From: Burkholderiales bacterium
GTDB lineage: Bacteria; Pseudomonadota; Gammaproteobacteria; Burkholderiales; JALYOK01
Direction: 5' to 3'
DNA: 64,000 bases
Assembly (NCBI GenBank): GCA_046598945.1
Contig: JBKJHT010000121.1
Coordinates: 6,862-70,861 of the forward strand
Numbering within the stretch: position 1 is the first letter of the stretch; the number at the start of each line of letters is the position of its first letter. Below, in pieces: positions 12,170 through 30,508 of the stretch. The position numbers and the translations under genes are program-made. The notes beneath the pieces are model-generated. The model searched no databases and was not told where the DNA came from. It saw only the letters and a program-made list of their open reading frames with translations.

Positions 12170-12199
12170 CTTTGCTCGCCTTCTCCCATTCTTCGTTCC

Positions 12200-13810: not shown

Positions 13811-14389
13811 ATGACAAACAATGAAGTAGAGAGTTGTGCGACCAACAAACCGATCAATCCAAAACGTCGTCGCGTGATCGAAATTGCGGTCGCAGGCGTG
13901 GCGGCAAGCTTCACCGGATTAAGTGTTGCCGAAACGGCGCCTGGCGCGGGTGATCGTCTCGTCCTTGATGACGCGGAAGGCGAGCCGGTGGCGCTACGCG
14001 CTGCGGACTTAAAGGTCGGCAAGCCGATCTTAGCGTTTGCATTTGATAAGGCAACCAAGGAAATGCGCAACGGCTCGCGCTTGCACAAGATCATGTTGAT
14101 CAAATTGGACGAAGCTGACCTTAACGCCGAAACCAAGGAGCGTGCGGCATCCGGCGTCATCGCGTTTTCGGCGATCTGCACCCACCAGTCCTGCGACGTG
14201 AAAACCTGGATCGCGAAGGAAAAGGCGTTGGTTTGCTTTTGTCACTCGACCAAGTTTTTACCGCTTGAGGCGGGCAAGGTCGAAAGCGGCCCCGCGACCC
14301 GTGCTTTGCCCACGATTCCGCTTAAATTAGAAGATGACGAACTGGTTCTCGCCGGTACTTTTAGCGCGCGGACGGGTCCGAGCGCCTAA
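13811..14389 (+). CDS. Exported Rieske [2Fe-2S] protein (QcrA/AioB-like)
   Basis: CTHQSC and CFCH boxes, GPA..ALP loop, twin-arginine-like KRRRVI followed by a hydrophobic stretch. Confidence 0.9.
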   Translation: MTNNEVESCATNKPINPKRRRVIEIAVAGVAASFTGLSVAETAPGAGDRLVLDDAEGEPVALRAADLKVGKPILAFAFDKATKEMRNGSRLHKIMLIKLDEADLNAETKERAASGVIAFSAICTHQSCDVKTWIAKEKALVCFCHSTKFLPLEAGKVESGPATRALPTIPLKLEDDELVLAGTFSARTGPSA

Positions 14390-14461
14390 CGACGGCTGAA
14401 CAAATTTTGTAGTATCGCGGCGTTACGGCGCCGCCCATTTCACAACCACGAGGAGCATTAA

Positions 14462-16186
14462 ATGAAATTTGTAATGAAAGCGCTGTGTGCCGCCGCTTTG
14501 ATCGTACCCGCGATCACGGCTACGGCATCGGACTACGCGCCGGTCACTGACCAGCGTCTCACCAACCCGGAAGCGGGCAACTGGCTGCAATACCGTGGTA
14601 ACTATGCGGGCTGGGGCTACAGCCCGCTGGAAAAGGTTAACGCCGGCAACGTTAACAAGCTGCAAACCGCCTGGTCGTTCTCGACCGGTGTGGCAGAAGG
14701 CCACCAGTCGCCTCCCATCGTTAACAATGGCTATATGTACATCACCACGCCGGGCTCGCAGTTGATCGCAATCGACGCCAGAACCGGTGGCGAGTTGTGG
14801 CGTTATAAGAAGGAAGTTTCGCCCGAGATGCTGCAATTGCATCCGACTAACCGTGGCGTCGCGCTCTATGGCGACAAGGTTTATGTCGCAACGGTTGATG
14901 CGCATTTGGTCGCCCTCGACGCCAAGACCGGCAAGGTCGCTTGGACCAAGCAAGTCGGCGATTGGAAAGCGCTGCAATACATCACCCTCGCGCCGTTGGC
15001 TGCTAAGGGCAAGATCATGGTCGGTTCCTCCGGCGGTGAAACCGGTGTGCGCGGCTTCGTCGCTGCTTACGACGCGCAAACCGGTAACGAAGCTTGGCGC
15101 ACCTTCATGACGGCCGGCCCCGGTGAACCCGGTGGCGACACTTGGCCTGGCGAGACCGCCAAAACCGGCGGCGCGTCGATCTGGATCACCGGTACTTACG
15201 ATCCGGCGACCAACCTCGCTTTCTGGGGTACGGGCAACCCGGCACCGTGGCCGATCCATCTGCGCAAGGGCGACAACCTCTATGCGACGTCCGTTGTTGC
15301 ACTCGATGTCGATACCGGCAAGCTCAAGGGCTATCACCAATACCACCATAACGACGCGTGGGACTGGGATGAAGTTTCCGCGCCTCTATTGATCGACACC
15401 ACCGTGAACGGCAAAGCGGTCAAAACCGCCGTCCACGCTGGCCGTAATGGATATCTGTGGGTGTTGGAGCGTACTGCCGACAAGATCAACTATCTTGCTT
15501 CCCATAAATACGTGTTGAACGACGTGTTTACCGGTATCGATGCCAAAACCGGCCGCCCGAGCTACGACGCTGCCAAGACACCCGGCACGGAAAAGCCGGT
15601 GAAATTCTGCCCGTCGCTTTGGGGTGGTAAGGATTGGGTGCCCGAGGCGTACAACCCGAAAACCAAGCTGTTCTACATCCCGGCCAATAACAACCTCTGC
15701 TCGGAATTGCCGGCTGCCGACAAAGAAGTACCGTACAAGAAGGGTGATCTGTTCATCGGCTATCCGATCGACGGCGTACTCGGCAGTTTGCGTTGGGCCG
15801 ATGCGAATGCGCCTAAGACCATTGGCGAAATCCAAGCTTGGGACATTTCCACCGGCAAACAAGTGTGGACACACAAGTTCCCGACTTTTATGTGGGGTCC
15901 GATCCTCACTACCGGCGGTAACCTCGTATTCGCCGGCGGCACCAACGATCGCAAATTCCGTGCATTCAACGCGACCAACGGCAAGCCGCTATGGGAAACC
16001 ACCATGCCTTCCGGCGTGACCGGTGTGCCGGTTTCCTACGAGGTGGATGGCGAACAGTACATCGCTGTTCAGGCCGGCTGGGGAGTTGATGCGCAGCGCA
16101 TGCAAAGCGGCGTTGACGCGCTACTCGGCAACAAGACGGTCGTTCCGCAAGGCGGCGTGCTTACGGTGTTCAAGTTAGCTAAGTAA
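14462..16186 (+). CDS. Periplasmic PQQ-dependent dehydrogenase, methanol/ethanol-family fold, atypical
   Basis: Sec signal; beta-propeller repeats (LDAKTGK..W); NRG, GGE, W, GNP, WDWD, GRNG; no CxxCH heme domain. Confidence 0.92.
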   Translation: MKFVMKALCAAALIVPAITATASDYAPVTDQRLTNPEAGNWLQYRGNYAGWGYSPLEKVNAGNVNKLQTAWSFSTGVAEGHQSPPIVNNGYMYITTPGSQLIAIDARTGGELWRYKKEVSPEMLQLHPTNRGVALYGDKVYVATVDAHLVALDAKTGKVAWTKQVGDWKALQYITLAPLAAKGKIMVGSSGGETGVRGFVAAYDAQTGNEAWRTFMTAGPGEPGGDTWPGETAKTGGASIWITGTYDPATNLAFWGTGNPAPWPIHLRKGDNLYATSVVALDVDTGKLKGYHQYHHNDAWDWDEVSAPLLIDTTVNGKAVKTAVHAGRNGYLWVLERTADKINYLASHKYVLNDVFTGIDAKTGRPSYDAAKTPGTEKPVKFCPSLWGGKDWVPEAYNPKTKLFYIPANNNLCSELPAADKEVPYKKGDLFIGYPIDGVLGSLRWADANAPKTIGEIQAWDISTGKQVWTHKFPTFMWGPILTTGGNLVFAGGTNDRKFRAFNATNGKPLWETTMPSGVTGVPVSYEVDGEQYIAVQAGWGVDAQRMQSGVDALLGNKTVVPQGGVLTVFKLAK

Positions 16187-16208
16187 TTTTTGTAGTTTAG
16201 TACGCTCT

Positions 16209-16259
16209 AATTTGCCCCCGACGCCGTAGAATTGGCGGTGTCCGGGGCGAATTGTTTTT
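16209..16259 (+). terminator. Probable intrinsic terminator
   Basis: GC-rich imperfect stem (TTGCCCC...GGGGCGAA) followed by TTGTTTTT, just after the PQQ gene. Confidence 0.55.
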
Positions 16260-16328
16260 GACGAATAGCTTTATTTCGCGCTAGTGCTAGCACGCATATC
16301 GCAACCATTGAATTGAGGAGAACCATTC

Positions 16329-17000
16329 ATGATCGTCGTGCATCATCTCAACAACTCGCGCTCACAGCGCATCCCGTGGTTGCTGGAGGAACTGGGCGTG
16401 CCTTACCGGCTCGAGCAACATCAGCGCGATGGCAAAACCAATCTCGCACCACCCGAATTGCGCCTGATCCACCCGTTAGGCAAATCGCCGGTTATCCAAG
16501 ATGGTGATCTGACATTAGCCGAGTCGGGCGCCATTATCGAGTATCTGGTCGAGCGCTATGGCGCGGGACGGCTCGTGCCGCAGCGCGGTTCGAGCGAGCA
16601 TGTCCGCTATTTATATTGGATGCACTTTGCCGAGGGCACCATCATGTTGCACATGGTCGCGCGACTTTATCTCATCCGCGTCGGTGAAGCGGCGAAGGCA
16701 ATGCTGGCGCGCGTCGAGGCGATGATCGGCGACGAGTTGGATTTGGTCGAGGGCGAACTTGGCCGTAGCGCGCATCTCGCCGGAACGGAATTCAGCGCCG
16801 CCGATGTGCAGATGGTATTTCCATTGGAATTTGCCGCGTACGGTGGGCTCCTAACTGAACGTCACGCCAAGCTGCGCGACTATCTCGCTCAGATGCAGGC
16901 ACGCCCCGCCTATCGCCGAGCAGTGGAAAAGGGCGGTGCATACGCATTCGATTCTGTTAGCGCCGGCGATGCCGCGCCGTTTCCAATGCCCGGGCGCTAA
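16329..17000 (+). CDS. Glutathione S-transferase
   Basis: HHLNNSRSQRI.WLLEEL, HPLGKSPV, ESGAIIEYL, FSAADVQM. Confidence 0.93.
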   Translation: MIVVHHLNNSRSQRIPWLLEELGVPYRLEQHQRDGKTNLAPPELRLIHPLGKSPVIQDGDLTLAESGAIIEYLVERYGAGRLVPQRGSSEHVRYLYWMHFAEGTIMLHMVARLYLIRVGEAAKAMLARVEAMIGDELDLVEGELGRSAHLAGTEFSAADVQMVFPLEFAAYGGLLTERHAKLRDYLAQMQARPAYRRAVEKGGAYAFDSVSAGDAAPFPMPGR

Positions 17001-17096
17001 TAGTTCGTACTAGCCGTCCCGATACGGTCGGACAGGCGCAGTGCACTGGCCGATGCACTGTCCAAAACTGAAAAATGCCTTAACAAAGCGCCCTGC

Positions 17097-17723
17097 TTAA
17101 ATACCACGCGCGACGTCTACTGCCAGGGCTTTCGCTGCATCGCGGGAGCCCTGGTCGACCTCCGGGCCGAACAACGTCTTTTCTATCGGTATCAGCGCAA
17201 TGTCGGTGATGCCATTGGAATTCAGCCAGACTGTCAAATAGGATGTTTGAACGTCCCAACTGCGAGAAGCGGATTCCGGCGCGTAATCTATTCCTTTCGC
17301 CAACACCAGCACGGCCTTCTTGCCGGTGAGCAAACCCAGTAGGCCACGTTCATCGAAGGTAAATAGGATATCTTTTTGCGACACCACGTCGATGAGATGC
17401 TTTAGCTTGTACGGAATACCCCAGTTCCACATCGGCGCAGATATCACGATCGTATCGGCTTCTTTAAAGGGGCGCGCCAACGACTCAATCGTTTTCCAGA
17501 CTCGCTTTTGCTCGTCAGTGCGCTCGCGGCCTTCGATCCCCGCGTACTTTGCCTCTATCGCCGCGCCGTCGAATTCGGGCAGCGCCAGATTCCATACGTC
17601 GATCGTCTCCATTGTATGGCCTGGATGCGATGCTCGGTAGGCGTCCAAAAATGCTCGAGCTACTTCAATGGAGGCCGAGCGTTGCTTGCGTGGGGATGAT
17701 TCAACGTACAGTAAGTTTGCCAT
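17097..17723 (-). CDS. FMN-dependent NADH-azoreductase/quinone reductase (AzoR/AcpD family)
   Basis: SSPR...SAS, APMWNWGIPYKLKHLID, GLLTGKKA. Confidence 0.9.
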   Translation of the reverse strand: MANLLYVESSPRKQRSASIEVARAFLDAYRASHPGHTMETIDVWNLALPEFDGAAIEAKYAGIEGRERTDEQKRVWKTIESLARPFKEADTIVISAPMWNWGIPYKLKHLIDVVSQKDILFTFDERGLLGLLTGKKAVLVLAKGIDYAPESASRSWDVQTSYLTVWLNSNGITDIALIPIEKTLFGPEVDQGSRDAAKALAVDVARGI

Positions 17724-17843
17724 GGGTGGTTTCCTTTTGGGTTGGTTGCAATATTTTATCGTAAGCGTTACTCGAATTTAAGGCTTACGGCGGGTGGTGA
17801 TCGTAAAAAATTACGGGTATTGAACACGCCTTTCGCATCAGTG

Positions 17844-18455
17844 CTAACGCGGCATCGTCTGCGCAAAAGATTCGCGTTTTCTGAGCTGCTGCGACAACGC
17901 ATCCAGCGTCGGCATCGGCGGTAACCAAGGCGCATCGGCAAAACGAAAACGTAGATAGTCGAGCGCGACGGTGGTGCAAATGGCGTCCAGCGTTGGTGCG
18001 CCTTCGCTTGCGAAGGCTACGCGCGACGCGATCGCTTCGAGCCGCGCCATGCCTTCCGCCATGGTGCGTCGCCGGCGCAATCCGACCGGCGTGTCATCAA
18101 ACAGCAGCGGCGCGGTGACTTTTCGAATGATGATGGTATGAACCGCCGCGTCGATCACGCCCATCGCGGCACCCGCGCGCGAAAGTACGTTTGCAGCATC
18201 CATTCCTAGCAGGCTCGGGAACGCCGGTGCCGGTCGCGTGTGCTCAAGCCATTGCACGATCAACAAGCTTTCAGTAAGCGGCGTGCCGTCGTCGGTAATC
18301 AACGTCGGCACACGCGTAGCGGCATTGGCATTGCGTAAACGTACATCGTCGGCCCACGGGTCAACCAATGTGGGTTCAACGTACAGGCCTTTTTCGATCA
18401 TCGCGACTCGTGCGATCCGTACATAGGGTGACGTGGTATTGGCAAGTAATTGCAT
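17844..18455 (-). CDS. Glutathione S-transferase-like protein
   Basis: TSPYVRIARV, RVPTL, ESLLIVQWL, ALDYLRFRF; start moved to ATG 18455. Confidence 0.85.
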   Translation of the reverse strand: MQLLANTTSPYVRIARVAMIEKGLYVEPTLVDPWADDVRLRNANAATRVPTLITDDGTPLTESLLIVQWLEHTRPAPAFPSLLGMDAANVLSRAGAAMGVIDAAVHTIIIRKVTAPLLFDDTPVGLRRRRTMAEGMARLEAIASRVAFASEGAPTLDAICTTVALDYLRFRFADAPWLPPMPTLDALSQQLRKRESFAQTMPR

Positions 18456-18489
18456 AGTGTTAGCTTTCGATAAAGTGTTTAGCGACCGA

Positions 18490-19248
18490 TCAATACATGA
18501 TATGGCCGCCATCGACCACCAGCGTTTGACCGGAGACGAATCCCGCCAGATCCGAGAGTAAATAAAGCGCCGTACCGACCAAATCGTCGGGGCGCTGCTC
18601 GCGCGAAATGGCGCGTGCTTTCAAAAACATTTGCTGCCACTCGATCGGGCGGTTGCGCGTGGCATCGGTGATGACGAATCCGGGCGCAATCACATTGACG
18701 CGCACACCATGCTTGCCGGTTTCTTTCGCGAGACCTTTAGTCATCGATAGCACTGCTCCTTTGCTCGCGACGTAGTGCAGGTAGCCCGGCTGCCCCGCCA
18801 CCGCGACGACGGACGCGATGTTGACGATGCTGCCGCTGCCTTGCTTGCGCATGGCGGGCATCACCGCTTTGCAGCACAGCCACACGCCTTTGACGTTGAC
18901 ATCGAATAAGCGATCCCATTGCGCGGAATCGAGTTCCTCGAAATCCGTGAGTTTGATTTCGCGGAAGTAGGCGGCGTTGTTGATCAGGCCATCGATTCGG
19001 CCGAAGCGATTGACCGCGGCATCAGCCATCGCACGAACCGAGGTTTCATCGGCGACATCGACGCGCAGGCTGATTGCTTGGCCGCCAAGCTTTTGAATGG
19101 CGTCAACGGTTTCATCGGAGGCGTTCATATCAGCGACGACGACATTGGCGCCCTGCGCGGCGCAGCCGACGGCGAAAGCTTGGCCGATGCCAGTCGCGGC
19201 GCCGGTGACAACGATAGTGTGATTGGTGAGAAGGTTATTTGTGGTCAT
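18490..19248 (-). CDS. SDR-family oxidoreductase, probably NAD-dependent
   Basis: TGAATGIG, NNAA, Ser, YVASK, Asp after beta2 (VADMN). Confidence 0.93.
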   Translation of the reverse strand: MTTNNLLTNHTIVVTGAATGIGQAFAVGCAAQGANVVVADMNASDETVDAIQKLGGQAISLRVDVADETSVRAMADAAVNRFGRIDGLINNAAYFREIKLTDFEELDSAQWDRLFDVNVKGVWLCCKAVMPAMRKQGSGSIVNIASVVAVAGQPGYLHYVASKGAVLSMTKGLAKETGKHGVRVNVIAPGFVITDATRNRPIEWQQMFLKARAISREQRPDDLVGTALYLLSDLAGFVSGQTLVVDGGHIMY

Positions 19249-19279
19249 GGTAATGATCTCTTGGCAGTTAAATTGAAGA

Positions 19280-19696
19280 CTAGGGTTTACTCGTTGTTAA
19301 AGAAGTGGCAAGCGCCGGGCAGCGCTTACCTTTTTCGCAACGCTCGACTTGCATGCGTCGAATAAAGCGATCACGGTTTGGCGCACTAAGGTCAACTTGA
19401 ATCGCCCAAACGCCAGGCATTTCCAGCTCTAATTGAGTGCGATACTCGCCGGGGTGATTGGTTGCGACGGCGACAACAGGCTTGATGCTGTGCGCCATAG
19501 GCATCGACGGCATATGAGCGGCTAGCGTCACTGTCGCGGTTTTAATCGGTTCTCCGTTTGCGTTTTGTAGGCGGGCGGTGCATTCAAGCGCTGGACCTTC
19601 GCCAATCGAAACGCATTGCAACTCAAGCTTTGGTCGCGCATCCGCGTGGGCCATGCCGATCAGCGCGATGCATAAAAAGAAAAATCGGACGTTCAT
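19280..19696 (-). CDS. Secreted YtkA/FixH-like Ig-fold protein
   Basis: Signal peptide; HMPSMPMAH motif; PGEY...LEMPGVW pattern; four Cys in the mature part. Confidence 0.75.
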   Translation of the reverse strand: MNVRFFFLCIALIGMAHADARPKLELQCVSIGEGPALECTARLQNANGEPIKTATVTLAAHMPSMPMAHSIKPVVAVATNHPGEYRTQLELEMPGVWAIQVDLSAPNRDRFIRRMQVERCEKGKRCPALATSLTTSKP

Positions 19697-20604
19697 CGCG
19701 ATGCTTGTGTTCGAGCGCGAAATAGCTGGGTGAATCGATGCACCAACGCTTCATCGAGCAATCCGCGCTGGCGCCAGCGCAAAAACAATGCGACCAGCAA
19801 ACCGAATACCACCATGCGCCAGCCCGCGAACACGCGCGTGGCTTCCAGCAATCCCAAATCGAACGCGACACCCAGCAACGGTCCTAAGCACGTACCGAGT
19901 CCGCCGATTAAGGCATAGCTGACGGCGTGCACGCCGAGCATCGGATCGAACAATGCGGGTTCGATGTAAGTCGCGCGATGTGCGTACAAACCACCACCCA
20001 AAGCGGCAAGCGCACCGGCCGTAGTCGCGGCGACCAAACGCAAGCGCGTAACGGCCAAGCCTTGCGTGGCGGCAAGTACGTCGTCGTGGCCGGTCATGCG
20101 CAGTGCGACGCCCAATCTGCGCCGCTCCAGCCATGCAAATGCGAGCAACACGATTGCCAGCACAGCGGCGATTAATACCAAGTATTGTGACGGTGAAACA
20201 TCGTTTTCCAGCAACCAGCGGATATCGCGAAAGCCATCCAGCCCCGCCGGCCCAACCGGGCCATCGCTCGTTTCCTGCTGGAAGTACCAGGCTTGTAAAC
20301 CCACGCGTACCATCTCACCAAACGCGAACGTCGCGACCGCGTAGTGCAACCCGGAAAGAGGCATGGTGGGCAAGGCCAACAAGCACGACGCGAGCGCGCC
20401 GACCAGCATTCCCGCGAATAATGCGATGGAAAGCGGCCAGTGGGCCATGGCCGAAGCGATACCGGACACGTAGGCGCCTATGCCGAAGAATGCTTGCTGG
20501 CCAAACGAGATTCGACCCACCAGTAGCAATAAATACGCGGACAACGCGAGTAGCGCCATAATGCCCATGTCGCTGGCGAGCCCGACGGCGTGTTCAGCGG
20601 ACAA
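19693..20604 (-). CDS. Liv-type ABC permease (LivM-like), second copy
   Basis: GRISFGQQAFFGIGAY, AVATFAFGEMVR, GGLGT..GP. Confidence 0.9.
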   Translation of the reverse strand: MSAEHAVGLASDMGIMALLALSAYLLLLVGRISFGQQAFFGIGAYVSGIASAMAHWPLSIALFAGMLVGALASCLLALPTMPLSGLHYAVATFAFGEMVRVGLQAWYFQQETSDGPVGPAGLDGFRDIRWLLENDVSPSQYLVLIAAVLAIVLLAFAWLERRRLGVALRMTGHDDVLAATQGLAVTRLRLVAATTAGALAALGGGLYAHRATYIEPALFDPMLGVHAVSYALIGGLGTCLGPLLGVAFDLGLLEATRVFAGWRMVVFGLLVALFLRWRQRGLLDEALVHRFTQLFRARTQASR

Positions 20605-21523
20605 GCGTCGCTTCCTTGTTAAACGTCACCGAACGCCACGGCGCTACCAGCACGAGGAACAGCAACGCGTAGGTTGCGAACTCACGGCCCGCCGCGCCAA
20701 ACAGCGCTTGCGCGTGGGCTTCAACCACGCCAAGCAACAAACCGCCACACAACACGCCGCTGATAGAACCTAATCCGCCGAGCATGGCCGCGACGAGTCC
20801 TTTGACCAGCACCCACATACCGAACATCGGTGTAACTTGACCTGCCAAACTCAGCACAGCAAATGCCGCGATGCCGGACAGCGCGCACGCGAACGCGAAA
20901 GCGAGACGTTGCACGCGCCGCACCGAGATGCCGGCAAGCTGCGCAGCGGTGGGCTGATCCGCCGCCGCGCGCCACGCCAATCCACCACGGCTGACACGCA
21001 GCCAGCGCGCTAGGGCGAACGTGAGCACGATCGCCAGCAACGCAAGTACCAGCCGGTCCGTACGTAACACTAACGGTCCCAGATTCCATTCTTGCGACAC
21101 GGCTAACGATGGAAATGGATTTAAGTGGCGCGGTAACAGATTTACGGCGAGTTGCTCGAGTTGCATCCAGATAGCAAAGCTCGATGCCAGCGCGACGACT
21201 TCGCGGCCATCTCGTCCCGCGACCGGTGGACCGCCACGAACAGCATCTTGACCCGATTCGGATGTGTTAGAGAAACACAGCCATTCGACGTAGAGGCCTA
21301 TCAAGGTCGCCATGCCGATGACAACGATCGCGATGAAAAATATAGGGAGCTCATAACGCTGGTGCAACCATGCGCCGACGTAGGCAGCCAACATTGCGCC
21401 CGCGCCGTAGGCAAGATTCAAGCGCTTGAGGGTACCGAATGTGAGTGAGAGGCCGAGGCCGATCAGCCCGTAGGTTGCACCATCGAGCAGGCCATCCAAC
21501 GTGCGTTGTAGGAGCTCGATCAA
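20594..21523 (-). CDS. Liv-type ABC permease (LivH-like), second copy
   Basis: YGLIGLGLSLTFG..RLNLAYG, LGGLGSISG. Confidence 0.9.
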   Translation of the reverse strand: MIELLQRTLDGLLDGATYGLIGLGLSLTFGTLKRLNLAYGAGAMLAAYVGAWLHQRYELPIFFIAIVVIGMATLIGLYVEWLCFSNTSESGQDAVRGGPPVAGRDGREVVALASSFAIWMQLEQLAVNLLPRHLNPFPSLAVSQEWNLGPLVLRTDRLVLALLAIVLTFALARWLRVSRGGLAWRAAADQPTAAQLAGISVRRVQRLAFAFACALSGIAAFAVLSLAGQVTPMFGMWVLVKGLVAAMLGGLGSISGVLCGGLLLGVVEAHAQALFGAAGREFATYALLFLVLVAPWRSVTFNKEATLVR

Positions 21524-21533
21524 AACTCTCTCT

Positions 21534-21680
21534 TAGGGAAGCTCTGAATAAGTTCGAGTTCTAAATGAGACAAGGCGCGAACAAAAAATAGCGACGCAGC
21601 ATATGCGTGATATATAAGGAGATATTTTTTTTGAGCAACGCAGGATCATGACGAAATCGGACTTATTCAGAGCTTCCCTA
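21534..21680. mobile_element. 147-bp MITE-like palindromic element
   Basis: Perfect 20-bp terminal inverted repeats TAGGGAAGCTCTGAATAAGT / ACTTATTCAGAGCTTCCCTA with TA at both ends. Confidence 0.85.
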
Positions 21681-21682
21681 GC

Positions 21683-22399: not shown

Positions 22400-22415
22400 G
22401 GCTGTTCTCCGAAAT

Positions 22416-23177
22416 TTAGGCCGCTTTTGCCGCAGGCGTGTCGCTGCCCAAATAAGCCGTGCGTACTTGTGGATCGTCTTGCACTTGAGCCGGGGTACCC
22501 TCAGCAATCTTACGGCCGAAGTTCAACACCGCAACACGATCACACACGCCCATCACCAATTCCATGTGATGTTCGATTAGCAAAATCGTGCGGCCATCGT
22601 CGCGTAATTTTCGAATGCGATTATCGAGATCGTCAATTTCTTCCACGTTCATGCCGGCCGCGGGCTCGTCGAGCAATAGCAATTCCGCACCGGACGCCGC
22701 AGCCCGCGCCAACTCCAAGCGGCGTTGTTCGCCGAACGCGAGATTGCCGGCGAGCATGTCGCGCTTGTTCGCCAAGCTGCTAAATTCGAGCAGCGCTTCA
22801 GCTTGTTCACGCGCGGCCTTGGCGCCCGAGAGCCAACGCTCACGAATTCCCGCCCATCCGGTCGCACGAACAACGCGCGCGGCCCACACGTTTTGCCAGA
22901 CGGTGAGATGGCCGAATAGGCGGATATTTTGAAACGTGCGCGCGATGCCCAATTCACAGCGTTGGTGTTGTGCGAGATCGCCTAGGTCTTGGCCTTTGAA
23001 GTGGATCGTTCCCGAGGTCGGTTTAAACAGTCCGGCGATAAGATTGACCGTCGTGCTTTTGCCCGAACCGTTGGGACCAATCAGTCCGAGAATTTCACCT
23101 TGGCGGACTTGTAGATCGAGTTGATCGACCGCTTTTACGCCACCGAAATGACGGCTGACATTTTTGAGTTCAAGCAT
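22416..23177 (-). CDS. ABC ATPase (LivG-like)
   Basis: GPNGSGKST, RTFQNIRLF, LLLDEPAAG, IEHHM; start moved to ATG 23177. Confidence 0.93.
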   Translation of the reverse strand: MLELKNVSRHFGGVKAVDQLDLQVRQGEILGLIGPNGSGKSTTVNLIAGLFKPTSGTIHFKGQDLGDLAQHQRCELGIARTFQNIRLFGHLTVWQNVWAARVVRATGWAGIRERWLSGAKAAREQAEALLEFSSLANKRDMLAGNLAFGEQRRLELARAAASGAELLLLDEPAAGMNVEEIDDLDNRIRKLRDDGRTILLIEHHMELVMGVCDRVAVLNFGRKIAEGTPAQVQDDPQVRTAYLGSDTPAAKAA

Positions 23178-24099
23178 GATTGGCCTGCGCTTGAGTCTTA
23201 ATGGAATCGGTGGACGTTGAACGCGAACGCCACGGTAAGCGTAACGCACCGCTCAACACACCACTCGGGCGAATGAGCATCACGAGCAAAATCAACGCGC
23301 CGAACAACAGACTGCGCCAATCGCCGAGAAAACGTAGACCTTCGATGAGAAACCCTTGAATGAAAATCACCGCGATCACCGTGCCGGCGATGCTGGCAAG
23401 TCCACCGAGAATGGGGTACGCGATGGCGAATGTCGCGAGCAAAATCGTAAAATTGCCGTGCTCAATGTGAGTTGCGTAGTGGGCGAATAGTGCGCCTGCT
23501 AACCCAGCGATTGCACCACCGATGCCGAACGCGGACACTTTTGCGACGGTAAGATTAATCCCGACGCTTTGCGCAGCGACTTCGTCCTCGCCCACGGCGC
23601 GCCACAGCGTGCCGATGCGGGTGCGATCTAGCCTCCAGAGCAGCAGCATCACTAACGCGACTAGCACCCAAATGAAAGCAGCGACTTGCCACACGCTCCA
23701 GCCGTGACTCGGAAAGTAGCGAATTCCGCCGAAACCGAGCCCGCCATTTGGGCCAATTGGGCCTTGCGACGTTTGGACTTGCCAGGTGAGGTTGAAGAAC
23801 ACCAAGCGCACAATTTCCGCAAATGCCGTCGTCGCGACGACCAGCATCAATCCTTTCACGCGCAGCGCAGGAAAGCCTACCGCGATGGCGACTGCCGCCG
23901 CGATCAGCGAGGCGGCCGGGAGTGCCAAAAGTAACGGCCAACCGAACATTGCGGTCAGCATGCCTGCGGAATACGCGCCGATTGCAAAGAAGCCGCCTTG
24001 CGCCAAGCTCACTTGGCCGGTGTGCAACACGCACCACGCAGACAACCCCAACAGCGTGTGAATGCCGATGACTTGAGCGAGACTCAAATAGAAGTCCAT
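23170..24099 (-). CDS. Liv-type ABC permease (LivM-like)
   Basis: TGQVSLAQGGFFAIGAY, VATTAFAEIVR, RAVGEDEVAA. Confidence 0.92.
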   Translation of the reverse strand: MDFYLSLAQVIGIHTLLGLSAWCVLHTGQVSLAQGGFFAIGAYSAGMLTAMFGWPLLLALPAASLIAAAVAIAVGFPALRVKGLMLVVATTAFAEIVRLVFFNLTWQVQTSQGPIGPNGGLGFGGIRYFPSHGWSVWQVAAFIWVLVALVMLLLWRLDRTRIGTLWRAVGEDEVAAQSVGINLTVAKVSAFGIGGAIAGLAGALFAHYATHIEHGNFTILLATFAIAYPILGGLASIAGTVIAVIFIQGFLIEGLRFLGDWRSLLFGALILLVMLIRPSGVLSGALRLPWRSRSTSTDSIKTQAQANHA

Positions 24100-24111
24100 G
24101 GCGATCTCCCG

Positions 24112-24996
24112 TTAGTCCCGTCCGCCGGGCGCGCTGAACAAGCCGCCCGGCCTAAATACCAGGAACACAAAGAGCAGCAGCATTACATAGATATCGCGCT
24201 CGCTCACACCGCGCAAAAACTGAAATAAATTTTCGGCCCCGCCGACGATCAATCCCGCGACGATCGCGCCGGGTATGCTACCGAGTCCACCAATTACCGT
24301 AACCACCAAGCCTTTCACAGTCAACGGCAACGACAATAGCGGGGATAACACGCCAATCGCCGCGCCAGCCATTGCGCCAGCGGTGCCGCCGAGCAGGCCG
24401 GCGATGACGAAGGTGCTGGCATTGGTGCCATCGACACTCATGCCGCACAGGCGTGCCGCGATGGGTTGTTGCGCGACAGCACGAGTCGCGAGGCCGAGGC
24501 GAGTGCGCTTTAATAGCAGCGTGAGTCCCACCATCGCCAAACAGCCAAGGGCGAAAACAAACAACAAATCGCCACGAATCATGAACGGACCGATTTCGAA
24601 ATTCGCGCCGGAGAATAGCGCCGGATAATTGAGTGGCATGCCATCGGTCGCGTGGACGATGGTTTCCTCCAAGAGCAACAACATGCCCACCGTCGACATC
24701 AACGTAGCAAGCGGTTTATCGAGTGGGACGAAACGAAAGCAAATGAAATAAATCAACGCGCCCAACCCGCCGCCCATGAGTGTTGCGACTAAATAAACGA
24801 CGGGCGACGGTACAATCTTTACGACGATTAAACTCAAATACGCGGCGCCAATGGAAGCAGCCGCGTAAGAAAGATTGATTTTGTGCATCACGCCGAAGAT
24901 CAGCGTAAAGCCGATACCGATTAATGCGTAAATGGTACCGAACATCACCCCGTCGAAGACCGACTGCATGAGGTCCAACAGATCCAACATTGACAT
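24112..24996 (-). CDS. Liv-type ABC permease (LivH-like)
   Basis: YALIGIGFTLIFGV...INL, IGGLGSIPGA, RPGGLF; exact start uncertain. Confidence 0.92.
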   Translation of the reverse strand: MSMLDLLDLMQSVFDGVMFGTIYALIGIGFTLIFGVMHKINLSYAAASIGAAYLSLIVVKIVPSPVVYLVATLMGGGLGALIYFICFRFVPLDKPLATLMSTVGMLLLLEETIVHATDGMPLNYPALFSGANFEIGPFMIRGDLLFVFALGCLAMVGLTLLLKRTRLGLATRAVAQQPIAARLCGMSVDGTNASTFVIAGLLGGTAGAMAGAAIGVLSPLLSLPLTVKGLVVTVIGGLGSIPGAIVAGLIVGGAENLFQFLRGVSERDIYVMLLLFVFLVFRPGGLFSAPGGRD

Positions 24997-25071
24997 GACG
25001 GAGTGCGTCCTTGAAGTACGCTGCTTTAGTCGCAACCTCGCGCGAAATTTTCCGCGCGAGGTACGAGGTCG

Positions 25072-26289
25072 TTATTGGCCCGCAGGCGTATGCGCCACGA
25101 CCCAAGCGCCACTTTGTGCTTGCACGAAGAGGAACGGTTTGATCGCTTCGCGGTCTTTTGTGCGGCCAACTTTGCCGAGCAAGCCTTGGGTTTCTGTCAT
25201 ATTCGCCAAAGCTTCACGAATTTTTTGACGGTCGGCTTGAATGGTTTCCGGACGCGCCATGATCTTGTTTTTCTCGATCAAATTCTTCAGCGTGAAAATG
25301 TTTTCCCAGGCCGCAGCGTTGTGCAAATCCATGCTGGCATTCTGCGCGGCCAAGGCTTCGGCAGCTTTTTTAGCTTCCGGCGTCACCGGCGCGAAGCTGG
25401 TTGGAATCAAGATCCCTTCAGCCTGTTGCGCGCAGCCGTTCAAGGTTTCCATGCTTGAAGAGCTGGTTAGACCGACCAACATTTTCGGCTTCACGCCTTG
25501 GCGCTGCATTTCTTTCAGCACGCCGCAGGTGGTGAAGGGGTGTGCAGAAATTGCGACCACATCAGCGTTGGCACGCTTCATTTCGCGCACTTGCGTAGAA
25601 AAGCTGGTATCGGCGAGCAGCCACTCGCTTTGACCTAAGACTTCGAATCCACCTTTAGTCGCGATGTCTTTCATGGAATTAAACGTCGCATTGCTGTGAG
25701 CGAAGTCCTTCTCCACGCCGCCCCAGAATGTCTTAACTTGCGGGTGGCTAGTTTTGATCCAGTCGAACATGCTCTTATACATTGTCGCTTCGCTCGGCAC
25801 ATTGCGGAATGCCCACTGCGAAATCGATGCGAGGCCACCTTTCGCCGCCACGTCGGTGTAGAGCGGGAACTGCAACCCGGAATCGCTAGCATCGCCTACT
25901 TTCTTTTGCAGAATGCCGAATACCGGCTCGGCAACGCTGCTGCAGGTTGGGCCGACTGCGACGATGCCATCTTCAGACGCAGCGATGCGACGCAGCACGT
26001 TGATGCCCTCTTCCACGTTGCAGCGATCGTCCAAGTATTCGATGACGAGTTTCGCTTTTGCACCGTCACCCATTGTGACGCCACCGGCCTTGTTGATCTG
26101 ATCCGCGGCAGCCTTCATTGCCGCTTCGCTGTTCAAGCCGAATATACGAACCACGCCGCTTTTAGCGCCGAAGCCATAAATTTTGACGGTGCGCTCTTGT
26201 GCAACTGCTGAAACGCTGGCCACCGATACGGTTAGCGCGCTAGCGAGAACCGTGAGGGCAATACGAGAACGATTGTAAAACTGAACCAT
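25072..26289 (-). CDS. Liv-type ABC substrate-binding protein
   Basis: Signal peptide; INKAGG, DDRC, VGPTCSS, AFRN pattern; GGAGG RBS. Confidence 0.9.
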   Translation of the reverse strand: MVQFYNRSRIALTVLASALTVSVASVSAVAQERTVKIYGFGAKSGVVRIFGLNSEAAMKAAADQINKAGGVTMGDGAKAKLVIEYLDDRCNVEEGINVLRRIAASEDGIVAVGPTCSSVAEPVFGILQKKVGDASDSGLQFPLYTDVAAKGGLASISQWAFRNVPSEATMYKSMFDWIKTSHPQVKTFWGGVEKDFAHSNATFNSMKDIATKGGFEVLGQSEWLLADTSFSTQVREMKRANADVVAISAHPFTTCGVLKEMQRQGVKPKMLVGLTSSSSMETLNGCAQQAEGILIPTSFAPVTPEAKKAAEALAAQNASMDLHNAAAWENIFTLKNLIEKNKIMARPETIQADRQKIREALANMTETQGLLGKVGRTKDREAIKPFLFVQAQSGAWVVAHTPAGQ

Positions 26290-26397
26290 GACAGACCTCC
26301 TCAGAGAATTTAAAAAACTACCAATCGATAACCTTGAAAGTTGGAGTACAGCGTTCGTACTTTTTTATACCGATATTGCAAACTTCATTTCATCCAG

Positions 26398-28137
26398 CTA
26401 GCGATGCCCAGCGCTCTGACGCCAGTTGCGTTCTGCTTCGTCCCAAACGCCGAGCGCCTGAAGGTCAGGCACCCAAGCTAAGCCGGTTTTTCCGTCAGAC
26501 GATTTCGCTTCCGGTGTAACGACTACATCTAGCAAAGAGGGACGGTTTGCCAGGGCACGTTCGATGGCGCCGGGCAGGTCTTCAGTTCTTTCTACGCGTT
26601 CCGCATGCATGCCGAAGGCGCGCGCCATCGCGGCATAATCGGAGAACTGCAAACGCGTGCCGACTACTTTGCCGTGGGTGTCGGTCTGATCATGGACTTC
26701 AATTTGCCACGCGCCATTGTTCGCGACTACGATCAACACTGAAGCCTGATGTCGCACGGCAGTGTCGATCTCCATGGCGTTGAAGCCGAACGCGCCGTCG
26801 CCGGTCGCGACGACCACTTGCCGATCGGGATAAGCGAGGCTCGCGGCGATACCGAACGGCGTGCCAATGCCAATGCACCCAAGGGAACCTGGATCAAGAT
26901 AGGTAGACGCGGGCAATCCGACGCGCGCGAAGCTCAAGAAATCGCCGCCGTCCGCAATGATCACTGCGTCAGGCGCGAGTTGTTTTTGCAACTCGCCGAG
27001 CAAACGATTGGGATGAATGCGTCCATCGCTTCCTGGTGCAGCCGTTTGCATGGCTTGGCGCAGTTTGATTGCGCGCTCTTCGTGCTTTTGTCGAGTGGTG
27101 GTCAACCAATTGCGCTCGGCATTGGCTGCGCGATTACCTGCAACGTGAACCATCGCGCTAAGCGTAGCTGCCGGTTGCGCGAAGATTTCCACTTCGCCTC
27201 TTCGATTGTCGCGCAAGTCGCCAGGCGCATCGCCAATGCGGATGAAGCGCGCAGCGCCGAATATCGCAGGCGAGCCGAAGGCCAATTGGAAATCGAGACG
27301 GCGACCGAGCGTAACAATCACATCGGCTTCGGTCATCACGGTGCCGCGCATCGCCGCGACGACGGACGGATGCGAGTCCGGCACGAGGCCTTTGCTTTCG
27401 CCGGTATCAAGATACAGCGCGCCGCATTTGTCGAGCAACGCTGTCAATTCGGGGCCCGCGCCACGCGCGCCGCGGCCGCTGATGATCAACGGCCGCCTCG
27501 CCGACCAAAGCAGTTCGACTGCGGCCTCAATATCGTTGGGATCGGGACGCAAAACCGGCTTTGCCTTCGGGCGGAAATGTTCCTCCAATTGCAGCGGGCG
27601 CGGCACTTCGGCACGCAACGTGTCCACCGGAAAATCTAAATACACCGGGCCAGGATCGCCACCTTGTCCGAAGGCGCGGGAAACGGCTTCATCGAGTTCT
27701 TGCAACACTAAAGAAGGTTCACGCACCGTCCGGGCATAACGCGTGAGCGAGCGTACTAAGTCCGTATGGACGATGTCCTGCAACGCGCCGCGATTTTCTT
27801 GCGGGCGCGGCGGCAGGCCCGATAACACCAGCACCGATGCGCGTGCGATGTGGGCATTGGCGATGCCGGTCATAGCATTCGTAACCCCAGGACCGGCGGT
27901 TACGAGCGCCACGCCGAGTTGCCCGGTGAGTTCGCTGTGGGCGTGGGCCATGTACACCGCTGCACGCTCATCGCGCACGTCTATGATACGGATGCCTTCG
28001 GCATCGCAACGCATAAAGATCGGCATGATGTGGCCGCCGCACAGCGTAAAGATGCGATCCACGCCGCGTGCTTTAAGAAATCGGGCGATGACACCCGCGG
28101 CGCTATCGGCGGTGATCGGCGGAGGTGTAATGCTCAT
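26398..28137 (-). CDS. ThDP-dependent enzyme, 2-hydroxyacyl-CoA lyase-like (actinobacterial 2-hydroxyisobutyryl-CoA lyase type)
   Basis: DVRDE catalytic Glu, TAGPG, GALQD, GDGAFG...NN ThDP motif followed by AWQIE..DQ, and C-terminal lid GLAWVPDLQALGVWDEAE. Confidence 0.8.
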   Translation of the reverse strand: MSITPPPITADSAAGVIARFLKARGVDRIFTLCGGHIMPIFMRCDAEGIRIIDVRDERAAVYMAHAHSELTGQLGVALVTAGPGVTNAMTGIANAHIARASVLVLSGLPPRPQENRGALQDIVHTDLVRSLTRYARTVREPSLVLQELDEAVSRAFGQGGDPGPVYLDFPVDTLRAEVPRPLQLEEHFRPKAKPVLRPDPNDIEAAVELLWSARRPLIISGRGARGAGPELTALLDKCGALYLDTGESKGLVPDSHPSVVAAMRGTVMTEADVIVTLGRRLDFQLAFGSPAIFGAARFIRIGDAPGDLRDNRRGEVEIFAQPAATLSAMVHVAGNRAANAERNWLTTTRQKHEERAIKLRQAMQTAAPGSDGRIHPNRLLGELQKQLAPDAVIIADGGDFLSFARVGLPASTYLDPGSLGCIGIGTPFGIAASLAYPDRQVVVATGDGAFGFNAMEIDTAVRHQASVLIVVANNGAWQIEVHDQTDTHGKVVGTRLQFSDYAAMARAFGMHAERVERTEDLPGAIERALANRPSLLDVVVTPEAKSSDGKTGLAWVPDLQALGVWDEAERNWRQSAGHR

Positions 28138-29780
28138 GATCGTTCCTTGGCGGGTTTACGCGTTTGTTTTTTGAGCGCACGAAGATCGATCACACCAGGT
28201 TCCTTAAGTGGATCGGTTCCCGGCGGAAAGATGCTAACCTTTTGAATCTTTTGCGAGCTGGTTGTCGGTAGTTTGTCGACGAACAGAAAATACGCAGGCG
28301 CTTTAAAGTAGGCGAGGCGCTCGCAGCAGTACTCAAATAGCTCGCGTGCGAAATGTTCACCGGCTTGATCCGAGGCTTTCGGAATCACGAGCGCCATGAC
28401 CTCTTCCTCGCGAATTTCATCCGGTACGGCGATTACTGCGACTTGTTTAACTTTGTCGTGCGAGGTGATGCATTCTTCGATCTCGGCGGCGGCGATGTTT
28501 TCTCCGGCGCGGCGGATGATGTTTTTGCTGCGGTCCATGAAGAAATACATACCACTTTCATCGCGCTTGACGACATCCCCGGTGTGGAACCAGCCGTTGC
28601 GCCAGGCTTCGTCGGTCGCCTTTTGGTTTTTCAAATAGCCGCTGAAAAACCCTTCGCGCGGCGTTTCGGCGCTGTGGCGGATAACCAGTTCTCCGCCCTC
28701 GCCGACGGGAACTTCGTTGTCGTTGGCATCGACGGCACGTAACTCGGCGCCGTGCACTGATCGTCCGAGTGCGCGGGTGTGGATCATTCGTGGTTCTTCG
28801 TGTGCGGTGGTCATGCGGCCGGTTTCGGTCATGGCCCACATTTCAACTAACGGGAAACGGTAACGGCGCTCGAATTCTTCGTGTAGGCTCGGCTCGCAGC
28901 CGGCGCAAAGTGCAAACTTGACTTTGTGTGTGCGCTCCAATGGCGAATTAGGCAACTTCAGCAGGATCGCCGGAATGACGCCTTGAAACTGAATCGCGGT
29001 GACGCGGCAGTTCACAATATCATCCCAGAATGTGCTGGCGTGAAAGCGATCGGGAAACACCAAGCATCCGCCGGCGAGCAACATGGCGGGCAGCGAAATG
29101 GAAAAGGCATTTGCATGATGCAGCGGCAGCGGATTGTAAAGCCGCTCTTCGCCGTCCTTGAGCGCTAGCGTATGGCCGCGCGAAAGAAACCACTGACCCC
29201 AGTAGTGAAAATACTCGTTGGTCAGCACGCAACCTTTTGGCCGTCCGGTCGTGCCCGAGGTATAGAGCAGACCCGCTTCGGTTTTGCCGTCGGGGACTTC
29301 GTTCTTCGCCGGGACCAGCGGTCTGGGCAATGCGGCGGATAAATCGTCGAACGGCAATACCGGTATCGGCTTCGCAAGCGCGTTTGAGGCGGCTTGCAAA
29401 TCGGCGAGGCGCTCCTTGATGCCAAAAGCAACACAACACTCGGAATGTTCGAGCAGATAAACGATTTCGTCGTGGCGATAGTCCGGGTTGACGCTGACGG
29501 TGCTGCATCCCAGCGCATTCAACGCGAAGTGGTGAAACACGAACTCGGGCCGCTGCTCGAACAAAATCGCGACACGGTGTCCCGGCCCATAGCCGGCATC
29601 GCGATAGAAGCGAATTCGCTCTTGCACGGCTGAGAAAGTTTCGTTCCAGGTATATTCCTTACCTTCTGGATAATAAGCGCGACCGGCCATAGGCGGGACC
29701 GCATAGGCGGGGCGATCGCCATACTTCGCGACGCTACGTTGCAACGATTGATAAAGTGTGCCGAGGGCTAGGGCGTCCAT
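28134..29780 (-). CDS. Acyl-CoA ligase (CaiC-like AMP-binding protein)
   Basis: YTSGTTGRPKG, WAMTE, WFHTGD, DRSKNIIRRAGENI, KIQK; overlaps the ThDP gene by 4 nt (ATGA). Confidence 0.92.
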   Translation of the reverse strand: MDALALGTLYQSLQRSVAKYGDRPAYAVPPMAGRAYYPEGKEYTWNETFSAVQERIRFYRDAGYGPGHRVAILFEQRPEFVFHHFALNALGCSTVSVNPDYRHDEIVYLLEHSECCVAFGIKERLADLQAASNALAKPIPVLPFDDLSAALPRPLVPAKNEVPDGKTEAGLLYTSGTTGRPKGCVLTNEYFHYWGQWFLSRGHTLALKDGEERLYNPLPLHHANAFSISLPAMLLAGGCLVFPDRFHASTFWDDIVNCRVTAIQFQGVIPAILLKLPNSPLERTHKVKFALCAGCEPSLHEEFERRYRFPLVEMWAMTETGRMTTAHEEPRMIHTRALGRSVHGAELRAVDANDNEVPVGEGGELVIRHSAETPREGFFSGYLKNQKATDEAWRNGWFHTGDVVKRDESGMYFFMDRSKNIIRRAGENIAAAEIEECITSHDKVKQVAVIAVPDEIREEEVMALVIPKASDQAGEHFARELFEYCCERLAYFKAPAYFLFVDKLPTTSSQKIQKVSIFPPGTDPLKEPGVIDLRALKKQTRKPAKERS

Positions 29781-29797
29781 AGTTTCAAGTCGAGTAG

Positions 29798-30508
29798 TTA
29801 AGCCGTGCGATTCACGCGCCGTACGGTTTTCGCGGGAAGTTGTTTGTTCTGATTGAGATGTTGTTCCAAGCGGCCGGCCAATACATCGGATGCATGCGCG
29901 ATATGATGCCGGGCAATGCGCTCGGCTTTGGCGGCCTCGCCGGAGATGATGGCGTTTAGGATTGCTTCGTGCTGATCCCAGATTTCACCCGGCGTTTCTT
30001 CGCGCAACACCGCGGCCATCACTCGCCGCAAATAGTTCCAGTGCGGCGTGCAAATCTCGCCAATCAGCGGATTTCCGGAAAGACGGTAAAGAAAATAATG
30101 AAATTCCATATCAGCGATAGTCATCTGCGCGATGGAGCGATTTTTCACAGCCGTCCGGCCGCGGGCGAGATAAGGAGGGCCTTCTTTTTTGGCAACGTTC
30201 GCAGCAACCTCGGCAACCTTGGCGCTGGCGAGTCCGTCGAGCATTGCTCGCACTTCGAGAAGATTACGCACATGGGCGGGATCGAGTGGCGCGACCATCA
30301 AGCCGCGCCCCGGGGCATCGCGCAATAACCCACGGCTACGTAATAAGAGTAGCGCCTGTTGCACCGGCTGACGCGATACGCCCAGCGTTTCGGCTAGTTC
30401 TTCTTGAATTAAACGGCTGTCAAGCCCAAGCCGTCCTTCGATGATTTCCGTAAGGATCGATTCGTAAACTTGGTCGACTAACGTGGGTTGAGGGGTGAGC
30501 GTGCGCAA
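29798..30508 (-). CDS. GntR/FadR-family (FCD) transcriptional regulator
   Basis: LIQEELAETLGVSRQPVQQAL HTH; FCD motifs DMEFH, SGNP, HEAIL. Confidence 0.93.
   Translation of the reverse strand: MRTLTPQPTLVDQVYESILTEIIEGRLGLDSRLIQEELAETLGVSRQPVQQALLLLRSRGLLRDAPGRGLMVAPLDPAHVRNLLEVRAMLDGLASAKVAEVAANVAKKEGPPYLARGRTAVKNRSIAQMTIADMEFHYFLYRLSGNPLIGEICTPHWNYLRRVMAAVLREETPGEIWDQHEAILNAIISGEAAKAERIARHHIAHASDVLAGRLEQHLNQNKQLPAKTVRRVNRTA

Follow-up and report, generated by a model that had tools for sequence, protein, structure and literature searches.

A GntR operator shared by a 2-hydroxyacyl-CoA lyase operon and a Rieske–PQQ dehydrogenase operon points to a probable 1,2-diol route in a Burkholderiales genome

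The stretch analysed here, referred to as the window, comprises 64,000 nucleotides of a Burkholderiales bacterium (GenBank assembly GCA_046598945.1, contig JBKJHT010000121.1, positions 6,862 to 70,861; contig C93 of the genome labelled G000, which is 4.1 Mb in size and 99.8% complete). The named relatives of its genes are betaproteobacterial. Two of its operons, one encoding a GntR repressor, a CoA ligase and a thiamine diphosphate (ThDP)-dependent 2-hydroxyacyl-CoA lyase, and one a Rieske protein and a pyrroloquinoline quinone (PQQ)-dependent alcohol dehydrogenase, are preceded by the same operator and probably form a catabolic route for a 1,2-diol that ends in formyl-CoA. This regulated variant of the lyase route is real and apparently undescribed, and it contains a plausible new electron-transfer pair. 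No description of the regulon, the operator, the Rieske-PQQ pairing or the link between the lyase and a polyhydroxyalkanoate (PHA) synthase, PhaEC, was found in a literature search that covered few subscription papers. A preliminary description of the window had treated the block at 13811–30508 as a single pathway. Profile searches of the window open reading frames (ORFs) recovered every gene that it listed, each in its place, and by gene content the block is a mosaic of the ligase-lyase core, an accessory Rieske-PQQ pair and a separate transporter module.

The operator is a 20-nt near-palindrome, GCATTCTGAATTCAGAATGC, which starts at positions 13700 and 30551. These are two matches in the window against 0.02 expected by chance; with up to three mismatches allowed, the 4.1-Mb genome gave no further copy. 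The same sequence precedes gntR in six relatives and in further genomes, and it is also kept before the Rieske-PQQ operon in G006 and G007, where the pair was not seen beside the lyase. A genome-wide scan with a matrix trained only on gntR-upstream sites placed the Rieske site second (24.7) and the site of a second ligase-lyase copy third (17.0), with the next site at 14.4. The gntR gene itself neighbours the lyase in 21 of 25 non-redundant loci (at least 70% identity, flanks of at least 8 kb; condensed from 33), a set that is no unbiased sample because some loci were fetched for carrying a PQQ gene. One GntR operator thus stands before both operons, and shared regulation is predicted. The preliminary description had proposed as much: its shared operator is confirmed by the two window copies and their conservation in relatives, and this conservation also supports co-regulation of the two units. 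The sigma70-like promoter overlapping the Rieske site comes from a promoter scan at chance level, and G330 and G011 have three extra pattern matches between them, all located inside unrelated genes or close to such genes. A GntR paralog of G000 (43%) precedes a PhyH/ectoine-hydroxylase-like dioxygenase gene on contig C23.

The ThDP enzyme scores 826.7 against NCBIfam NF058623 (cut-off 600), and it matches PDB 7PT1 (E 7.5e-188), a structure of the lyase AcHACL. The AcHACL catalytic residues E65, Q128, E493, H44 and T88 are kept as E57, Q120, E480, H36 and T80, and the size-limiting L127 and I492 as L119 and I479. The ThDP motif GDG...N is present (GDG at 446), the equivalent of D496 is kept, and the C-terminal lid, aligned to residue 574, retains those of L566 and V569. 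The accessible portions of two papers tie such residues to catalysis and to an acyl limit of about C5 in AcHACL (PMC8760513, PMC13327070), and the lid residues of the window enzyme would hold its acyl substrate to C5 or less. With this score and these residues, the HACL-like lyase of the preliminary description is borne out, and the enzyme is likely, as predicted, to cleave 2-hydroxyacyl-CoA into formyl-CoA and a carbonyl compound. The ligase is less readily placed: it scores 332 against PRK06155 (cut-off 722), lies below every NCBIfam cut-off shown, and has no match at E 1e-5 to the HCL ligase of Methylibium petroleiphilum PM1. PDB searches with the ligase, and likewise with the Liv binding protein, the short-chain dehydrogenase/reductase (SDR) and the left-flank hydrolase treated below, returned generic relatives only. 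Distant homologs of the ligase (about 46–57%) have no constant neighbours and give no substrate clue in 17 loci inspected by eye.

A lyase of this type was found in 14 of 61 relatives, a tally that includes the unpublished G008, on which alone no claim rests, and, with three candidates scored per genome, in 46 of the 401 genomes sampled from the order. A ligase of the window type accompanies it in 21 of the 25 non-redundant loci. G000 carries a second ligase-lyase copy (G000:C84:11187-12081 and C24:7773-8930; L175, L029) with its own weaker operator. The ligase ORF of this copy spans just 178 aa, its G007 counterpart has a split ligase, and a different PQQ dehydrogenase (34%) faces its lyase. 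At L019 (G003:C4), lyase and ligase lie in several frames and the PQQ gene is a 3′ remnant before the first glutathione S-transferase (GST) gene, so that the regulon there looks decayed, or the assembly contains errors. A gene for a di-haem cytochrome c peroxidase (MbnH/MauG-like) occurs near the lyase in 5 of the 25 loci, usually directly behind it (L098:9313-10455, L111, L191, L193–L195); the 60% ortholog in G000 lies elsewhere, without an operator. On a metagenome contig of distant lineage (L120:8146-13328), ligase (55%) and lyase (51%) stand beside genes that by eye are rhodopsin-like and carotenoid-synthesis-like.

The second operon encodes a PQQ enzyme that scores 563.8 against TIGR03075 (cut-off 480.05) and has 6ZCV as its best PDB match (E 1e-108). 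The vicinal cysteine pair of related enzymes is replaced by Leu-His-Pro, and Cys-Cys occurs in none of 79 aligned homologs. A D-x-D motif is present, reading WDWD both in the window enzyme and in the most frequent variants among the 79 aligned rows; it is taken as a lanthanide sign in the available part of one source (PMC11996626), and by this motif the enzyme is predicted to be of the lanthanide type. In G000, pqqC is above its cut-off, and six PQQ dehydrogenases pass TIGR03075, with further ones below it.

A structural model of the Rieske-PQQ complex scored 0.77, against 0.01 for the best control. The mark used for such models is reached by 116 of 157 solved pairs and 2 of 215 mismatched pairs, a calibration that is only rough here because own alignments and the 2Fe-2S ligand were used. 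Model runs agree in at least 97% of contacts, with a partner pLDDT of at least 90. The tightest contacts join residues 121–128 of the PQQ enzyme, the disulfide-replacing loop, to residues 126–129 and 144 of the Rieske protein, in its cluster loops. The model supports docking of the Rieske protein on the PQQ enzyme, without showing it. Docked at this loop, the Rieske protein would serve as electron acceptor in place of the cytochrome c used by related enzymes.

The pair recurs with the lyase. Matches to the PQQ enzyme at E 1e-150 were found in 16 of the 401 genomes. Among 8 other genomes with an ortholog of at least 63%, the lyase is present in 6 and within 4 kb in 4, across three families, and the two without lyase have no operator match; put the other way, 4 of the order's 45 other lyase genomes have Rieske-PQQ next to the lyase. 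Of 80 ligase loci from metagenomes, five also carry the pair, in three gene orders and in three cases directly behind the lyase; two of the five are near-duplicates of G251 and G284, and most of the contigs are short. This is the co-occurrence that the preliminary description had proposed to look for, and it links Rieske-PQQ with ligase-lyase repeatedly across several families. In Azoarcus sp. KH32C, genes for the lyase (74%), GntR, Rieske-PQQ (52% and 73%), a ligase of another kind, AldA and formate dehydrogenase lie together; five operator-like sites are present, and the units of lyase, ligase, Rieske-PQQ and TRAP are each preceded by a copy. The aldehyde dehydrogenase that ends the Rieske-PQQ operon in KH32C, G303 and G082 is an AldA equivalog (741–750 against a cut-off of 500), with E. 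coli aldehyde dehydrogenase A / lactaldehyde dehydrogenase as its best PDB match (E 1e-180). Its position behind Rieske-PQQ in three genomes supports a 1,2-diol substrate, the idea already put forward in the preliminary description, and is the strongest independent hint that the PQQ enzyme may yield a 2-hydroxyaldehyde.

On this evidence the following route is proposed. A short 1,2-diol (about C3–C5) would be oxidised in the periplasm by the PQQ enzyme to a 2-hydroxy aldehyde or acid, with electrons passing to the Rieske protein in place of cytochrome c. The 2-hydroxy acid would be imported by the MFS permease at 8647–9957, which we take to belong to the ACS family, and not by the Liv system. 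The ligase would convert it to the CoA ester, and the lyase would cut this into formyl-CoA and a carbonyl compound one carbon shorter. Formate would then be oxidised by a formate dehydrogenase, which G000 encodes, and PhaEC with the neighbouring hydrolase could store surplus hydroxyacyl-CoA. The diol, the MFS import, the formate oxidation and the store are what we infer.

Other readings of the lyase and the pair were considered. In the first, the 2-hydroxy acid is taken up directly and the co-regulated Rieske-PQQ pair acts on some other alcohol or on the carbonyl product. In its favour, 39 of the 45 other lyase genomes have no close PQQ ortholog, and distant PQQ dehydrogenases (33–36%) also stand beside lyase copies (L022, L026, L029). 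This reading is nonetheless unlikely: the recurrent partner of Rieske-PQQ is an AldA-type dehydrogenase of 2-hydroxyaldehydes, and the PQQ enzyme has a signal for export, but the product of the lyase is formed in the cytoplasm.

Several points weigh against the proposed diol route. No AldA ortholog was found in G000, where the best match is 39%. Close Rieske-PQQ occurs in just 6 of the 45 other lyase genomes, and 2 of the 8 close-PQQ genomes have no lyase, so that neither part needs the other; within the regulon, on this distribution, the pair is an accessory and optional part. In the lyase, AcHACL Q41 is replaced by Cys33 and Q255 by Gly246, changes that could shift specificity. No formyl-CoA transferase above cut-off was found in G000; for the formyl-CoA step, thioesterases are assumed in the available part of an earlier study (PMC7176365). 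In the window, no separate operator precedes the phaEC-hydrolase-MFS operon; about 450 nt, including an insertion sequence (IS) remnant, separate it from the Rieske site. Finally, the Liv module lies near the lyase in four other loci (L047, L061, L083, L094), in L094 with ligase, lyase and binding protein in the order of the window, and an operator-like site (24.1) precedes the binding protein gene in G006, the one strong site among 49 scored upstream regions. Some link between Liv and the lyase is therefore possible.

The Liv points also favour the idea of the preliminary description that the whole block is one pathway. Liv would then import the acid, and a reactive product would be dealt with by the SDR, the GSTs and the azoreductase. 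Such a product could, for example, be methyl vinyl ketone, methacrolein or acrolein, formed after cleavage when the diol is an unsaturated one derived from isoprene or butadiene. Further support comes from 3 of 53 binding-protein loci in which the Liv module is close to the lyase (in L094 it follows ligase-lyase directly), from GST1, which abuts the lyase in G003 and G007, and from 3 of the 25 lyase loci in which the operator has a mandelate-racemase-subfamily gene as neighbour. The mandelate-racemase family prefers beta,gamma-unsaturated 2-hydroxy acids. For Rhodococcus, an isoprene-derived lyase substrate has been proposed in the accessible part of one paper (PMC7176365). The distribution of the module makes a single pathway distinctly unlikely. 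Of the 53 binding-protein loci, many of them short, so that counts hold within the available flank, 43 contain LivH1, 30 the SDR, 29 GST2 and 1 AzoR; 50 have no lyase and none has Rieske-PQQ. The binding protein occurs in 3 of the 61 relatives, and the other two, G006 and G009 (86% and 93% complete), have no lyase match. It is present in 1 of the 25 lyase loci, against 5 for the MFS permease. Elsewhere the module has the order binding protein-Liv-SDR-long GST-SnoaL-GST2, often, in the loci inspected, with LysR and aldehyde dehydrogenase genes and a divergent CoA transferase gene; the window copy has no long GST, SnoaL, LysR, aldehyde dehydrogenase or CoA transferase gene. In G003 and G007, the stop codon of the lyase abuts that of GST1, so that the segment at 17000–26398 is absent at that spot.

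Judged by these comparisons, the Liv-SDR-GST2-AzoR block is a module with an inheritance of its own that sits between GST1 and the lyase, and the Liv genes, SDR, second GST and azoreductase probably fall outside the diol route. The Liv uptake of the preliminary description is not supported either, as the transporter that tracks the lyase across genomes is the ACS-type MFS permease outside 13811–30508. The Liv system comprises four permeases, two ATPases and one binding protein, all subunits miss the LivFGHMK equivalog cut-offs (binding protein, 43.8 bits), and it is predicted to be a HAAT-fold importer that is no branched-chain amino acid equivalog. The block may be read through from the gntR promoter, yet it is not needed for the route; promoter and terminator scans are at chance level. 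In a Limnohabitans-type group, operator-like sites before the binding protein gene score 5.5–15.6 and were not counted. A miniature inverted-repeat element of 147 nt interrupts the Liv operon; the genome contains 18 more copies of it at nearly full length. The module occurs in named Burkholderiales (Limnohabitans, Hydrogenophaga, Variovorax, Aquincola and others; L042–L092) as a HAAT-type importer with four permeases, YtkA-like, SDR, two GST and SnoaL genes, often also with LysR, aldehyde dehydrogenase, CoA transferase and CitE-like lyase genes.

Outward of the Rieske operator, and divergent from it, lies a phaE-phaC-hydrolase-MFS operon (8647–13249). Orthologs of the MFS permease (65–88% to the reference copy; the window copy, 73%) stand beside ligase-lyase in 5 of the 25 non-redundant loci, and the hydrolase accompanies ligase-lyase in 3. 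Close PhaC orthologs occur in 3 of the 61 relatives, the same three that have a 95–100% PQQ enzyme, and at 88% or more in 3 of the 401 order genomes, each sharing a stretch with ligase-lyase and Rieske-PQQ; a fourth match among the 401 is at 49%. Metagenome locus L111 also joins PhaC with ligase-lyase and Rieske-PQQ. In G251, weaker operator-like sites precede an SDR-phaE operon (16.1) and an MFS-ligase-lyase operon (20.0). This co-travel could also mean block transfer among kin. G000 has a second, distant PhaC (23%). The window PhaC is predicted to be a class III synthase, with 3-, 2- or 4-hydroxyacyl-CoA as possible monomers. An epoxide-hydrolase-like alpha/beta hydrolase gene at 6888–7745 converges on the MFS gene; its product could supply a diol.

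The PHA synthase suggests two further schemes. In one, the lyase works as a synthase and joins formyl-CoA to the PQQ-made aldehyde, giving 2-hydroxyacyl-CoA for the class III enzyme. AcHACL is reversible according to the available text of PMC13327070, and close PhaC orthologs are found only in genomes with close Rieske-PQQ. Such a direction is very unlikely all the same, since the constant partner of the lyase is an AMP-forming ligase (21 of the 25 loci), PhaC occurs in few loci (2 of 25), formate dehydrogenase genes adjoin the cluster in KH32C, and the cluster encodes no formyl-CoA source. In the other scheme, a lanthanide PQQ enzyme oxidises short diols and passes its electrons to the Rieske protein in place of cytochrome c, and 2-hydroxyacyl-CoA goes either to the C1-cleaving lyase or to PhaEC with its own depolymerase, as a natural poly(2-hydroxy acid) store; this more elaborate version is improbable.

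As to the substrate of the proposed diol route, the mandelate-racemase-subfamily neighbour suggests acids with an alpha-hydrogen in some hosts, and lyases in 2-hydroxyisobutyrate operons suggest tertiary acids in others. 2-Hydroxyisobutyrate was not adopted as a sure substrate, because the ligase is not HCL. Acetone carboxylase gamma subunit and soluble di-iron monooxygenase gave no match in G000, with silent controls, so that absence is not established. Cleavage of 3-sulfolactate, derived from dihydroxypropanesulfonate, to sulfoacetaldehyde and formyl-CoA was considered because the automatic name of one Atlas cluster close to the ligase is sulfoacetate-CoA ligase. Its probability is close to nil, and it was rejected on the distribution of xsc (sulfoacetaldehyde acetyltransferase), which occurs in 55 of the 401 genomes and 3 of the 46 lyase genomes and has no G000 match at E 1e-180; moreover, in its acyl-pocket motifs the window lyase agrees with lyases of 2-hydroxyisobutyrate operons. 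TRAP importer, acyl-CoA dehydrogenase, SDR, phosphotransferase and DUF6285 genes lie beside the lyase in L177:17514-24552, L188 and L047. In KH32C the TRAP/DUF6285 genes sit behind an operator-like site and hint at 4-hydroxy or 4-oxo substrates; the acyl-CoA dehydrogenase-SDR-kinase-DUF6285 operon is presumably lva-like, that is, levulinate-pathway-like. About 10 kb from the regulon, the window also encodes a lactate-racemase-N-domain protein (41105–42433, weak Pfam) and a long Abhydrolase_10 protein (41945–44623).

Coordinates are collected in Table 1. The preliminary description had bounded the block by IS remnants. Both exist, the left one being weakly supported and called IS3-like from its partial identity to an integrase-core (rve) ORF; as a functional edge the left remnant fails, because the phaE-phaC-hydrolase-MFS genes beyond it recur with the system. 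The junctions phaC-phaE-operator-Rieske, GST-livH2 and binding protein-lyase are bridged by contigs from other public data (four sequencing runs, one possibly from the source sample itself), so that the gene order is no assembly artefact. In run X5, contig depth is 110–144 for the core genes and 28–38 for the Liv block, values that are no copy number and were not used as evidence; among the joints listed for this run, none skips the Liv block.

Table 1. Predicted features of the regulon and its surroundings (window coordinates).
Feature	Position	Strand	Evidence or remarks
ACS-type MFS carboxylate permease, likely hydroxy-acid importer	8647..9957	-	Pfam MFS_1; HpaX, D-galactonate permease, below cut-off
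Alpha/beta hydrolase (GTSLGG), candidate depolymerase, esterase or lactonase	10001..10939	-	Motif
Class III PHA synthase PhaC	11027..12169	-	TIGR01836 376.5 > 365.3; lipase-box Cys, Asp, His motifs kept
PhaE subunit	12200..13249	-	PF09712 above cut-off; TIGR01834 below
IS3-like remnant between phaE and operator	13246..13638	-	111-nt match (73%) to an rve ORF of contig C213
GntR operator copy 1; the sigma70-like promoter of Rieske-PQQ (13692-13720) overlaps it	13700..13719	.	Motif scans
Rieske [2Fe-2S] protein, twin-arginine-type leader	13811..14389	+	PF00355; RRR, CTHQSC, CFCH motifs
PQQ alcohol dehydrogenase, WDWD motif, Leu-His-Pro loop for vicinal Cys-Cys	14462..16186	+	TIGR03075
GST 1	16329..17000	+	Pfam; abuts lyase stop codon in G003, G007
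Separate module: AzoR-like, GST2, SDR, YtkA-like, LivM2, LivH2, LivF, LivG, LivM1, LivH1, binding protein	17097..26289	-	
Azoreductase-like (AzoR)	17097..17723	-	
GST 2	17844..18455	-	
SDR	18490..19248	-	
Miniature inverted-repeat element between livF and livH2	21534..21680	.	35-nt inverted arms
Liv binding protein	25072..26289	-	
ThDP-dependent 2-hydroxyacyl-CoA lyase, AcHACL type	26398..28137	-	NF058623, PDB 7PT1
AMP-forming CoA ligase, CaiC/PRK06155-like branch, not HCL	28134..29780	-	Best NCBIfam PRK06155
GntR/FCD repressor	29798..30508	-	Pfam
GntR operator copy 2, upstream of gntR-ligase-lyase	30551..30570	.	Motif scans
Frameshifted IS110-family transposase remnant	about 31083..32016	+	Weak Pfam hits

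The presence of the lyase regulon in about 11% of the sampled order genomes (46 of 401) suggests a common natural 2-hydroxy acid or diol, and its ligases and lyases would be new enzymes for one-carbon elongation work. A disulfide-less PQQ enzyme with a Rieske partner would, if true, be a new electron exit for quinoproteins. PhaEC would be relevant to polylactate-type polymers if it accepted 2-hydroxyacyl-CoAs; to our knowledge, PHA synthase activity on these is known mainly from engineered synthases. As the cultured Azoarcus sp. KH32C carries the lyase, Rieske-PQQ and the operator, the question is testable there.

Among known systems, short-chain alpha-cleavage by a 2-hydroxyacyl-CoA lyase has been shown in one actinobacterium, as far as the available portions of three papers tell (PMC7176365, PMC8760513, PMC13327070). 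The cluster of Actinomycetospora chiangmaiensis DSM 45062 (GntR, AcHACL, HCL, MpdC, MpdB) resembles the window system in its lyase family, with the catalytic Glu and Gln and the C-terminal lid, in a GntR-headed ligase-lyase arrangement and in the proposed conversion of a diol via a 2-hydroxy acid to a carbonyl compound and formyl-CoA. Unlike it, the window system belongs to a Gram-negative host, has a CaiC-like ligase instead of HCL, Cys in place of Q41, and, for the presumed diol oxidation, a periplasmic PQQ/Rieske pair instead of the NAD(P)-linked MpdB/MpdC, with no MpdB/MpdC-type genes in 8647–30570, and it includes an importer and a class III PHA synthase. The Gram-negative analogue of the actinobacterial route envisaged in the preliminary description therefore stands for the lyase family, but not for the ligase, and Rieske-PQQ is optional in it. 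The 2-hydroxyisobutyrate mutase operon on plasmid RPME01 of Methylibium petroleiphilum PM1 encodes a ThDP enzyme that is 61.6% identical, with nearly the same active-site motifs; it differs in having HCL and a B12 mutase, no Rieske-PQQ in the fetched region and no match to the window operator. A lyase with the same active-site motifs is also found in G379 beside HCL. In both PM1 (L178:9543-19284) and G379 (L198), the AcHACL-type lyase of the 2-hydroxyisobutyrate mutase operon lies beside a gamma-carbonic-anhydrase-like gene.

The PQQ enzyme shares the beta-propeller, the metal-site Glu/Asn and D-x-D with lanthanide type I PQQ alcohol dehydrogenases such as 6ZCV, which we take to be PedH, with a cytochrome c partner. 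Unlike classical type I quinoprotein alcohol dehydrogenases, it has no vicinal Cys-Cys, and the model predicts a Rieske partner at the replaced loop. The available part of one paper notes minor members of the family without Cys-Cys, and Rieske proteins are not mentioned in that part (PMC8561711). The window PhaEC pair resembles class III synthases in that PhaC is above the TIGR01836 cut-off and has the triad motifs, with PhaE encoded upstream. Class III PhaEC synthases are of the Allochromatium type. Unlike these, the window pair sits with a hydrolase and a carboxylate permease by a hydroxy-acid catabolic regulon.

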